Shown one piece after another: positions 41,496 through 42,104 of a stretch of DNA of 64,000 bases; position 1 is the stretch's first letter; each line of letters opens with the position of its first letter. A program made the position numbers and the translations under genes. The DNA comes from Blastocatellia bacterium (GTDB lineage Bacteria; Acidobacteriota; Blastocatellia; UBA7656): contig CAVXWP010000002.1 in the NCBI GenBank assembly GCA_963765495.1, positions 192,001 through 256,000 on the forward strand. The letters are read 5' to 3'. The notes below the pieces were generated by a model. The model had not been told where the DNA came from, did not search any database, and saw nothing but the letters and a program-made list of their open reading frames with translations.

Positions 41496-42074
41496 TTATA
41501 TGGTACAACAATTTTCAGGGCCACAATCTCCATCCAGAGTCACCGAGCTAAAATGGCAAACGCCTTTTGTGTCGCCGCAGCACTGGCCATTTTGCTCGTC
41601 AGCCTTGCCTCCCGGACATGGAAGCGACTTCACACTATGATTGCTTATGCACAGATGTTTACAACTCACTTTCATCGTGCATCCCGTGGCAGCCTCAGCC
41701 GCCGTAGGCGATATGATCGTAATGACCGAAAGACCGCCGACCACTGCGAGCTTTCGCATCAAATCTCGACGCGATGAGCTGATATTTGCATCCAGAGGCG
41801 GATTCACCCGATCCCTGAGAAGCCGGGCCTTCCCCAGTCGGCGCAACGCAACCCAGACCACTTCATCGTCTACCGGAACACGAAGCTCGCTCCTGATGCG
41901 AGCCGCGATCTCCGGCACGCTCCTCTTCCCGTCGCAACTATGCCAGATCATAGCAGCCGTTTCGTTGAGGCAGTGAGCCTTATCACGATCAAGATCGTAC
42001 ACCAATAATTCGTCTTCATACTCTTCTATCACAAGGCCATCTTCTCTAGCGTGAGGAACCAACTTTGTTTTCAT
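41496..42074 (-). CDS. PqqD/RRE domain fused to twin-arginine-like leader and Cys-rich core peptide
   Basis: DELLVYDLDRDKAHCLNETAAMIWHSCDG...PEIA (PqqD fold signature); SRRDLMRK + hydrophobic stretch + PTAAEAA; 63-aa tail with 10 Cys. GGAG RBS favours ATG 42074; the ORF track starts at 42089. Confidence 0.85.
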   Translation of the reverse strand: MKTKLVPHAREDGLVIEEYEDELLVYDLDRDKAHCLNETAAMIWHSCDGKRSVPEIAARIRSELRVPVDDEVVWVALRRLGKARLLRDRVNPPLDANISSSRRDLMRKLAVVGGLSVITIISPTAAEAATGCTMKVSCKHLCISNHSVKSLPCPGGKADEQNGQCCGDTKGVCHFSSVTLDGDCGPENCCTI

Positions 42075-42104
42075 CTGTATCATCTCCAAGCGTTTTTGAT
42101 TTAC

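Follow-up and report, generated by a model that had tools for sequence, protein, structure and literature searches.

Gene architecture and distribution

The gene considered here lies in a stretch of 64,000 nucleotides from the genome of a Blastocatellia bacterium (assembly GCA_963765495.1, contig CAVXWP010000002.1, positions 192,001 to 256,000 of the forward strand), called the window hereafter. An open reading frame (ORF) of 197 amino acids with a TTG start occupies window positions 41496-42089 on the minus strand, between genes for an HprK-like kinase and a nucleotidyltransferase. It joins a PqqD-like domain of the RRE type (recognition element for precursors of RiPPs, peptides that are made on the ribosome and modified after translation), an internal twin-arginine-type signal and a cysteine-rich tail. 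Altogether, the evidence makes it on balance probable, though with modest confidence, that the gene encodes a precursor with its RRE in cis, the source of an exported, probably phospho-modified, disulfide-rich peptide made by a Gram-negative relative of the kinase-RRE-nucleotidyltransferase pathway of lasso peptides and linear polyphosphorylated peptides (LPPs).

The database copy of the protein, P0001, begins at M3 and has 195 residues, its numbering being that of the ORF minus 2; ORF numbering is used below unless stated otherwise. The Pfam model PqqD (PF05402) matches residues 28-73 with an E-value of 1.8e-7 and 31.8 bits, above its cut-off of 23.4 bits. After a short linker, residues 106-134, SRRDLMRKLAVVGGLSVITIISPTAAEAA, open with S-R-R-D-L-M-R-K and pass through a hydrophobic region into the conserved run V-x-[S/T]-I-x-[A/S]-P-T-A-A-x-A-A. 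The hydrophobic region together with the A-x-A signal peptidase site is present in the ORF as LAVVGGLSVITIISPTAAEAA, and the predicted signal peptidase I site falls between A131-E132-A133 and A134. The tail, residues 135-197, counts 63 amino acids with 10 Cys (two CC pairs) and 11 Ser/Thr (6 S, 5 T). An earlier note, made from the letters alone, had claimed a PqqD-like N-terminal part, an RR motif with hydrophobic region and AxA site at residues 106-134, and these same tail counts; all of it was read back exactly, so that its observation is confirmed, while its interpretation is partly supported and its family-level predictions hold. The binomial chance of at least 10 Cys in 63 residues is about 8e-10 when a Cys frequency of 1% is assumed, and the architecture kept across relatives is the stronger argument against chance.

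A word-indexed protein search returned 129 relatives at E-values up to 1e-3, the 120 listed spanning 109-266 amino acids. The alignment used throughout holds 115 of them, with the evidently truncated P0050, P0068, P0098 and P0110 and the 266-residue P0119 left out. A scan of species-representative genomes (one per species) confirmed 267 relatives, from which 80 loci in other genomes were kept for analysis, some counts being made on 82 or 85 loci. The relatives belong mostly to Blastocatellia/Pyrinomonadaceae and Gemmatimonadota, with single records from Nitrospinota and Terriglobia. An even sample of the phylum of the window gave a match at 1e-15 in 22 of 301 genomes, concentrated in its own class, and the genome of the window itself carries three copies of the gene. 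PqqD is matched by all 115 aligned relatives, and in every one of them the RRE is fused to the precursor part; the RR and AxA segment is likewise retained in the aligned relatives, as the earlier note had expected of homologs. Ten columns are invariant (E27, L29, Y31, D32, L41, C52, G54, L90, R107 and P128). A search for shorter relatives gave two matches, possibly truncated, and no longer fused form scored in the search, which is weak evidence. This is apparently a large and undescribed precursor family of soil bacteria with hundreds of members. A literature search retrieved no description of an RRE-fused family, and nothing under the names TIGR04352 or TIGR04353; Supplementary Data 1-2 of PMC13381572, a paper represented here by excerpts, might list non-Bacillota or fused examples.

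One copy, found in the same phylum but in a different class (locus L088, 3650-4366, minus strand), carries a frameshift right after the RR motif, and its hydrophobic region, AxA site and 8-Cys core run on in another frame, as a pseudogene or an assembly error would.

The RRE domain and its fold

The AlphaFold2 model of P0001, built on the 115-row alignment, has a mean predicted local distance difference test (pLDDT) of 84.6 and a predicted template modelling score of 0.66, and its RRE part reaches pLDDT 93-97 with three strands followed by three helices in a winged helix-turn-helix arrangement. A second model was made for a paralog of 159 amino acids on contig C7 of the same genome (81-row alignment). 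Both place strands at 17-21, 25-30 and 35-40 and helices at 41-49, 56-67 and 73-85 (P0001 numbering), with pLDDT above 90. The top Foldseek matches in the Protein Data Bank are to the lasso B1 protein TbiB1 (5v1u/5v1v), solved with a leader peptide, at a target TM-score of 0.76-0.77 and a root-mean-square deviation (rmsd) of 2.3-2.5 Å over 88-92 columns. TbiB1 also heads the list for the C7 paralog, with target TM-scores of 0.74-0.77 across both models. When compared with the sequences of solved structures, the family profile found only weak PqqD (E 0.1-0.3) and spider-toxin (E 0.36-0.47) matches, and the kinase and nucleotidyltransferase found none.

Within the RRE, residues H39, C40 and C52 (window 41934-41975) belong to a near-invariant His-Cys in strand 3 and an invariant Cys-Asp-Gly after helix 1. 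Strand 3 is the leader-binding strand in other RREs, and PqqD proteins of known structure carry other residues at these places; the family-specific pair could be a metal or redox site.

The internal twin-arginine-type signal

The signal segment is conserved in an unequal manner across the 115 aligned relatives. R107 and P128 are invariant and R108 is kept in 113, while the two alanines of the cleavage site, A131 and A133 (A129 and A131 of P0001), are found in 95 and 102 members. Around the arginines, S/N/T occupies position 106 in 114 relatives, D/E position 109 in 98, L/M/V position 110 in 107 and R/K position 112 in 95; farther on, V/I at 122 (115), S/T at 124 (111) and I/L/V at 125 (115) mark the hydrophobic region. 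Position 135, beside the predicted cleavage site, is T/S in 107 relatives, and the first Cys comes next, the consensus of the family leader being SRR... V-x-S/T-I-x-A-P-T-A-A-Q-A-A-T/S. The segment resembles signal peptides of the twin-arginine translocation (Tat) system in its S-R-R-x-hydrophobic-hydrophobic-K/R motif, in the moderate hydrophobicity of a stretch with much Ala, Gly, Ser and Thr, and in its AxA c-region. The host genome encodes TatC (219 bits) and two TatA/B/E genes, and the N-terminal Tat-like signals of the same genome have the same [STN]RRx-hydrophobic-hydrophobic-K/R shape. The profile TIGR01409 (TAT_signal_seq) gives weak matches in 42 members (E up to 1) and TIGR02811 in 56.

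The motif begins at residue 106 of 197 and not at the N-terminus. A folded N-terminal domain can be reconciled with a Tat signal that inserts as a loop and keeps its N-terminus inside. The statement of the earlier note that Tat signals are normally N-terminal stands as a rule, with the qualification that dual Sec-Tat membrane proteins have internal ones (PMC5449189). Those signals follow transmembrane helices, whereas the present one is found 105 residues in, after a folded soluble domain.

In both AlphaFold models a helix lies over the RR motif (P0001 105-114), and a strand of five residues, not a membrane helix, stands directly before the invariant Pro (VITII at 120-124 of P0001; 121-125 in the C7 paralog). 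The hydrophobic and c-regions are conserved well beyond the needs of export and cleavage, which suggests a second reader of the segment, either the RRE in cis or the enzymes. In this regard, I-x-x-P-x-A of the leader resembles the RRE-binding motif [Y/W]xxPx[L/V/I/F/A] quoted in the excerpts of PMC13381572, as a resemblance alone.

An orphan ORF of 53 amino acids in locus L086 (4032-4193, plus strand) consists of MRR, the hydrophobic region of the family, AQAA and a 6-Cys core of knottin type. Its neighbour is a large gene resembling outer-membrane receptors, while RRE, kinase and nucleotidyltransferase are absent from its surroundings; it could be a leftover of a longer gene or a secreted peptide that stands by itself. 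It indicates that the module of signal and core can occur alone, the signal then serving as an N-terminal signal peptide.

A hypervariable core and the knottin fold

Identity was computed over 3000 random pairs from 206 unique sequences (database matches and locus translations). Its mean falls from 0.54 in the RRE and 0.46 in the leader (RR to first Cys) to 0.27 in the core, and to 0.18 when the Cys residues of the core are ignored; even pairs whose RREs are at least 90% identical have cores that are only 67% identical. The earlier note had set a variable tail against one invariant like an enzyme domain, and the core identity and the divergence of tandem copies bear out the former. At locus L064 the 129 codons of RRE and leader are identical in DNA between two tandem copies (7983-8519 and 9224-9805), whereas their cores differ at a nonsynonymous divergence (dN) of 0.32 and a synonymous one (dS) of 0.46, which suggests that the genes were converted, or their cores swapped, not long ago. 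The second copy also has a different end. The three copies of locus L035 show dN/dS of about 0.12-0.2 for RRE and leader and about 0.5-0.9 for the core, and the cores of the tandem copies at L017 and L018 are saturated. A conserved leader before a hypervariable core is what precursors of RiPPs and peptides of venoms show, and not what an enzyme domain or a sensor shows.

The number of Cys in the tail is even in 198 of the 206 sequences and odd in 8, with 6 in 116, 8 in 47, 10 in 29, 12 in 5 and 4 in a single one, so that 197 tails have 6, 8, 10 or 12. The spacing C-C-CC-C-C fits 93 tails. The 6-Cys core of the C7 paralog is modelled at pLDDT 89-93 and is matched by Foldseek to the spider knottin 5fzv (rmsd 0.5 Å over 25 columns, 40% identity, probability 1.00), as well as to omega-atracotoxin 1hvw (rmsd 0.8 Å) and conotoxin 9nvh; the E-values of these matches are just 0.6-2.1, as the domains are tiny. 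Pfam families of knottin toxins give weak matches in 1-14 of the 115 aligned relatives per family. The tail of the window protein, on the other hand, lies outside the six-Cys pattern, matches no knottin family and, with its 10 Cys, is modelled with moderate confidence (block pLDDT 65-80). The knottin-like peptide that the earlier note had guessed finds support in the 6-Cys subfamily, and is a candidate fold for the tail for which it was proposed. As for its other suggestion, a metal-binding core, the even Cys counts and the knottin models favour disulfides.

In the evolution of conotoxins, a conserved pre-region precedes a hypervariable mature peptide. The present family is alike in this, in the six-Cys spacing of part of its tails and in the fold of the C7 core; it differs in that the host is bacterial and the pre-region consists of an RRE and a Tat-like signal.

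Neighbouring genes and genomic context

The two genes that flank the ORF were not mentioned in the earlier note, and they tie it to a phospho-modification pathway of the lasso/LPP type. Directly upstream, in the same operon direction, lies the P-loop kinase, and directly downstream the nucleotidyltransferase (Table 1). The order HprK-like kinase, precursor gene, NTP_transf_5 recurs in the loci searched with the proteins of the window. Synteny was counted on the 80 loci of other genomes, using only those with at least 1.5 kb of flank. Of 73 testable loci, 50 have a same-strand kinase ortholog no more than 1.5 kb upstream, and of 72, 59 have a same-strand nucleotidyltransferase ortholog downstream; both are present in 42 of the 67 loci testable on both sides, and at least one in 61. 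Walker A is kept in all 60 kinase orthologs and GDxD in 56 of 68 nucleotidyltransferase orthologs. Two or three precursor copies occur in 13 of the 80 loci, the tandem copies sharing RRE and leader and differing in the core.

Table 1. Parts of the gene and neighbouring genes in the window
Feature	Position	Strand	Basis
PqqD/RRE part	41814..42062	-	Pfam PF05402, AlphaFold2, Foldseek
Variable linker, ORF residues 93-105	41775..41813	-	weakly conserved alignment columns; no regular secondary structure in the model
Internal Tat-like signal, ORF residues 106-134	41688..41774	-	conservation of RR, Pro and AxA
Hypervariable cysteine-rich core, ORF residues 135-197	41499..41687	-	10 Cys
HprK-like P-loop kinase	42105..42920	-	TIGR04352 HprK_rel_A, 44.5 bits (200-bit cut-off)
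NTP_transf_5 nucleotidyltransferase	40336..41454	-	Pfam PF14907, E 1.7e-26
401-aa protein, Cys cluster near N-terminus	39033..40238	-	no Pfam/NCBIfam match; homologs in 8/85 loci
262-aa protein, hydrophobic N-terminus	43197..43985	-	no family match; homologs in 15/85 loci

The cassette of the window is part of a long glycan operon on the minus strand, which also encodes glycosyltransferases, an epimerase, an asparagine synthase of GATase type and a Wzy_C protein. Relatives often lie within polysaccharide loci too, with some Gemmatimonadota loci found beside rpoC and the elongation factor gene EF-G instead. An unbiased clustering of the genes found up to 6 kb away in 82 loci recovered Wzz/GNVR in 16, epimerase in 16 and Wzy_C in 15 loci, together with a TPR and CBM_4_9 carbohydrate-binding protein in 23 (e.g. 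L008, 107-1246). No signal-peptidase-like or ABC-exporter family was found among the recurrent neighbours in these 82 loci, for which the largest neighbour clusters were annotated, and this fits the use of general export.

Giant secreted proteins ending in Peptidase_C25 (gingipain family) adjoin the cassette in 26 of 85 loci by phmmer (among them L084, 2921-8668, plus strand, and L085, 6575-9862, minus strand) and in 29 of 82 by clustering. Such giants flank two of the three copies in the genome of the window, and not the copy of the window; a role as processing or attachment enzyme is possible.

Comparison with known systems

The nearest counterpart is offered by the LPP clusters of Bacillota (Popov et al., Nat Commun 2026, PMC13381572), of which what follows is taken from excerpts of the paper. 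These clusters lie in capsule loci. Their kinase, LppK, is HprK-like and their RRE, LppB, a discrete protein; a SipW-like leader peptidase (LppS), a nucleoside triphosphate (NTP) transferase (LppN) and an exporter (LppD) are encoded as well, and the precursors, of 35-200 amino acids, are conserved in the N-part and variable in the C-part. Ser3 of the core is polyphosphorylated by LppK, an S3T variant not being phosphorylated, and LppS cuts after T-1, needs the RRE and cuts the unphosphorylated precursor poorly. With this system the present family has in common a kinase of HprK type, an RRE of lasso type and an NTP transferase without lasso cyclase (LppK and LppN being matched by description only), as well as a location in polysaccharide loci, a conserved N-part before a variable C-part, one to three precursor genes and a leader site of signal-peptidase type, here a predicted one. 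The differences are equally clear. The RRE is discrete in the LPP clusters and fused to the precursor here; the LPP leader reads YxxPxVLxHQxIxFETxxS, whereas the present one is a twin-arginine-type signal with AxA and without that motif. Moreover, the LPP clusters bring their own SipW-like peptidase and MsbA-like exporter, neither of which is among the recurrent neighbours described above, and in the excerpts they are called restricted to Bacillota, while the present family is found in Acidobacteriota and Gemmatimonadota and has cysteine-rich cores.

Lasso peptides provide a second comparison. As described in the portions of PMC8498205 considered here, homologs of HPr kinase together with a nucleotidyltransferase phosphorylate and glycosylate lasso peptides such as paeninodin and pseudomycoidin; the present family has a similar pair, which would serve in tailoring, and the B1-type RRE is the nearest structural relative of its N-terminal domain. 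A lasso cluster proper was rejected, as no B2 peptidase or macrolactam cyclase adjoins the gene; the only asparagine synthase, 8 kb away, carries a GATase domain, belongs to the glycan operon and is not a lasso cyclase. The HPr-rel-A system (TIGR04352 HprK_rel_A and TIGR04353 PqqD_rel_X) has the same pairing of kinase and PqqD protein and both of its models match weakly, far under their cut-offs (44.5 against 200 bits for TIGR04352 and 13.4 against 35 bits for TIGR04353). The TIGR04353 model, with its 74 positions, covers the PqqD fold alone.

Proposed pathway and alternative explanations

In the pathway that we consider on balance probable, the cis RRE would serve in the cytoplasm as a docking platform for kinase and nucleotidyltransferase, and may in addition bind the conserved strand (V-x-S/T-I-x-A-P) of the leader in its own chain. 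A hydroxyl residue would be phosphorylated and possibly further decorated, by analogy with LppK and the pseudomycoidin nucleotidyltransferase, the candidate target being the nearly invariant Ser/Thr at position 135. The RR signal would then insert as a loop with the N-terminus in and the C-terminus out, probably by the Tat route, which is able to carry modified cargo. By analogy with the Bacillota LPPs, where an ABC pump is used, a peptide modified in the cytoplasm would need a route that takes bulky cargo, for which Tat is the obvious candidate. Housekeeping signal peptidase I would cut after A131-E132-A133, leaving the RRE on the cytoplasmic side, and the released peptide of about 64 residues would oxidise to form up to five disulfides, and a knottin in the 6-Cys relatives.

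Several observations weigh against this proposal. The Tat models score low: TIGR01409 gives this protein 13.6 bits against a cut-off of 16.7 bits, Pfam TAT_signal matches a single one of the 115 members, and Leu, Met or Val stands at the canonical Phe of the motif. Disulfide-rich peptides normally fold after Sec export, and a Sec or signal-anchor fate for the segment, instead of Tat, is still compatible with the data. The hydrophobic region around the strand has a pLDDT of just 64-72 in both models. As for the modification, Thr and Ser are about equally frequent at position 135 (56 and 51 relatives), though LppK did not phosphorylate the S3T variant in the excerpts cited above, and the phosphorylated C-terminal Ser of lasso peptides is not conserved in the present family. 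Furthermore, the kinase is missing from the 1.5 kb upstream in 23 of 73 loci and the nucleotidyltransferase from the downstream side in 13 of 72, the third paralog of this very genome is without an adjacent kinase, and among the sequencing runs holding the stretch there is one soil metagenome DNA run and no RNA run.

A more specific version of the proposed pathway, which we put forward as a doubtful and frankly speculative one, would have the cis RRE clamp its own Tat-signal strand (V-x-S/T-I-x-A-P) and retain the precursor in the cytoplasm until the junction Ser/Thr is phosphorylated or phosphoglycosylated, first by the kinase next door and after it by the nucleotidyltransferase. Such a checkpoint would couple modification to Tat export, and the products would be a large and diversifying set of modified bacterial knottins for the envelope or the polysaccharide matrix, possibly processed or attached by the C25 (gingipain/PorU-like) peptidases that are often adjacent. 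The earlier note had likewise suggested that the RRE might mask the export signal up to the end of modification; the five-residue strand modelled before the invariant Pro is the one hint of such a contact.

The main rival explanation, which we regard as unlikely, is that of an uncleaved bitopic membrane protein with cytoplasmic RRE, hydrophobic anchor and periplasmic Cys-rich domain. The ligand of the RRE would then be another peptide or partner, and the protein would keep kinase and nucleotidyltransferase at the membrane near the polysaccharide machinery. RREs normally bind peptides in trans, the cassette sits in polysaccharide loci here and in many relatives, the Tat models score under threshold, and the related discrete form TIGR04353 (HPr-rel-A system PqqD chaperone) matches 65 of the 115 members weakly, all of which would agree with an anchored protein. 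Yet an anchor needs no invariant RR, no invariant Pro and no conserved A-x-A, and its ectodomain would have to be hypervariable and swapped between copies with identical RRE and leader. Nor does it account for tandem arrays or for an orphan signal and core without RRE, and no separate conserved small precursor gene was found among the recurrent neighbours of at least 90 amino acids (shorter ORFs unscreened).

Quite improbable in our view, though it would keep the exported disulfide-rich peptide, is an explanation in which the neighbours leave that peptide unmodified: the PqqD-like domain would be a built-in export chaperone or timer, like the proofreading chaperones of Tat, and kinase and nucleotidyltransferase would serve glycan synthesis. 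Save for the junction Ser/Thr the cores show no conserved modification motif, the paralog without adjacent kinase fits as well, and deletion of the NTP transferase was without detectable effect in a heterologous LPP system, according to the excerpts of PMC13381572. However, gene order and strand of kinase, RRE-precursor and nucleotidyltransferase are kept in two phyla, including the Gemmatimonadota loci beside rpoC and EF-G where glycan genes are replaced as neighbours, and the same pair of enzymes modifies lasso and LPP peptides in the portions of PMC8498205 and PMC13381572 used here.

That the ORF is really a pair of genes, with a discrete PqqD gene first and then a gene for a small secreted peptide with its own start just before SRR, is hardly credible and was rejected: Met does precede [S/N]RR in 12 of 95 unique locus copies and the orphan ORF of L086 starts with MRR, but the codon before SRR is often a non-start (TAC/TAT in 21 of the 95, CAG/CAA in 7, TTT/TTC in 4, CTT/CTC/CTA in 9) and a Ser codon in this gene, the reading frame runs through the junction except in a few frameshifted copies, and the search for shorter relatives in the database found just the two possibly truncated ones.

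If the cis-RRE precursor pathway is true, the family would hold the first RRE fused in cis to its own substrate among the cases found; in the survey PMC12710340, as far as its portions considered here go, RREs are fused to enzymes or uncharacterised domains and no precursor fusion was found. It would also extend the phospho-modification logic of lasso peptides and LPPs from Bacillota to abundant soil phyla, provide a natural twin-arginine signal working behind a folded cytoplasmic domain, and add hundreds of bacterial disulfide-rich peptides, partly of knottin fold, evolving like the venom peptides of animals. The family thereby raises the concrete question of whether the modification state gates Tat export.

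Other genes of the window

The proteins of 401 and 262 amino acids listed in Table 1 belong to no known family and are occasional accessory neighbours of the cassette. The asparagine synthase of the operon (49925-51904, minus strand) is of the glutamine-hydrolysing kind (GATase_7 and Asn_synthase), which is frequent in exopolysaccharide loci, and lies among glycosyltransferase genes. At the end of the glycan operon, two divergent ORFs (35931-37623, plus strand) resemble in translation an extracytoplasmic function (ECF) sigma factor and a membrane anti-sigma factor with CxxC.

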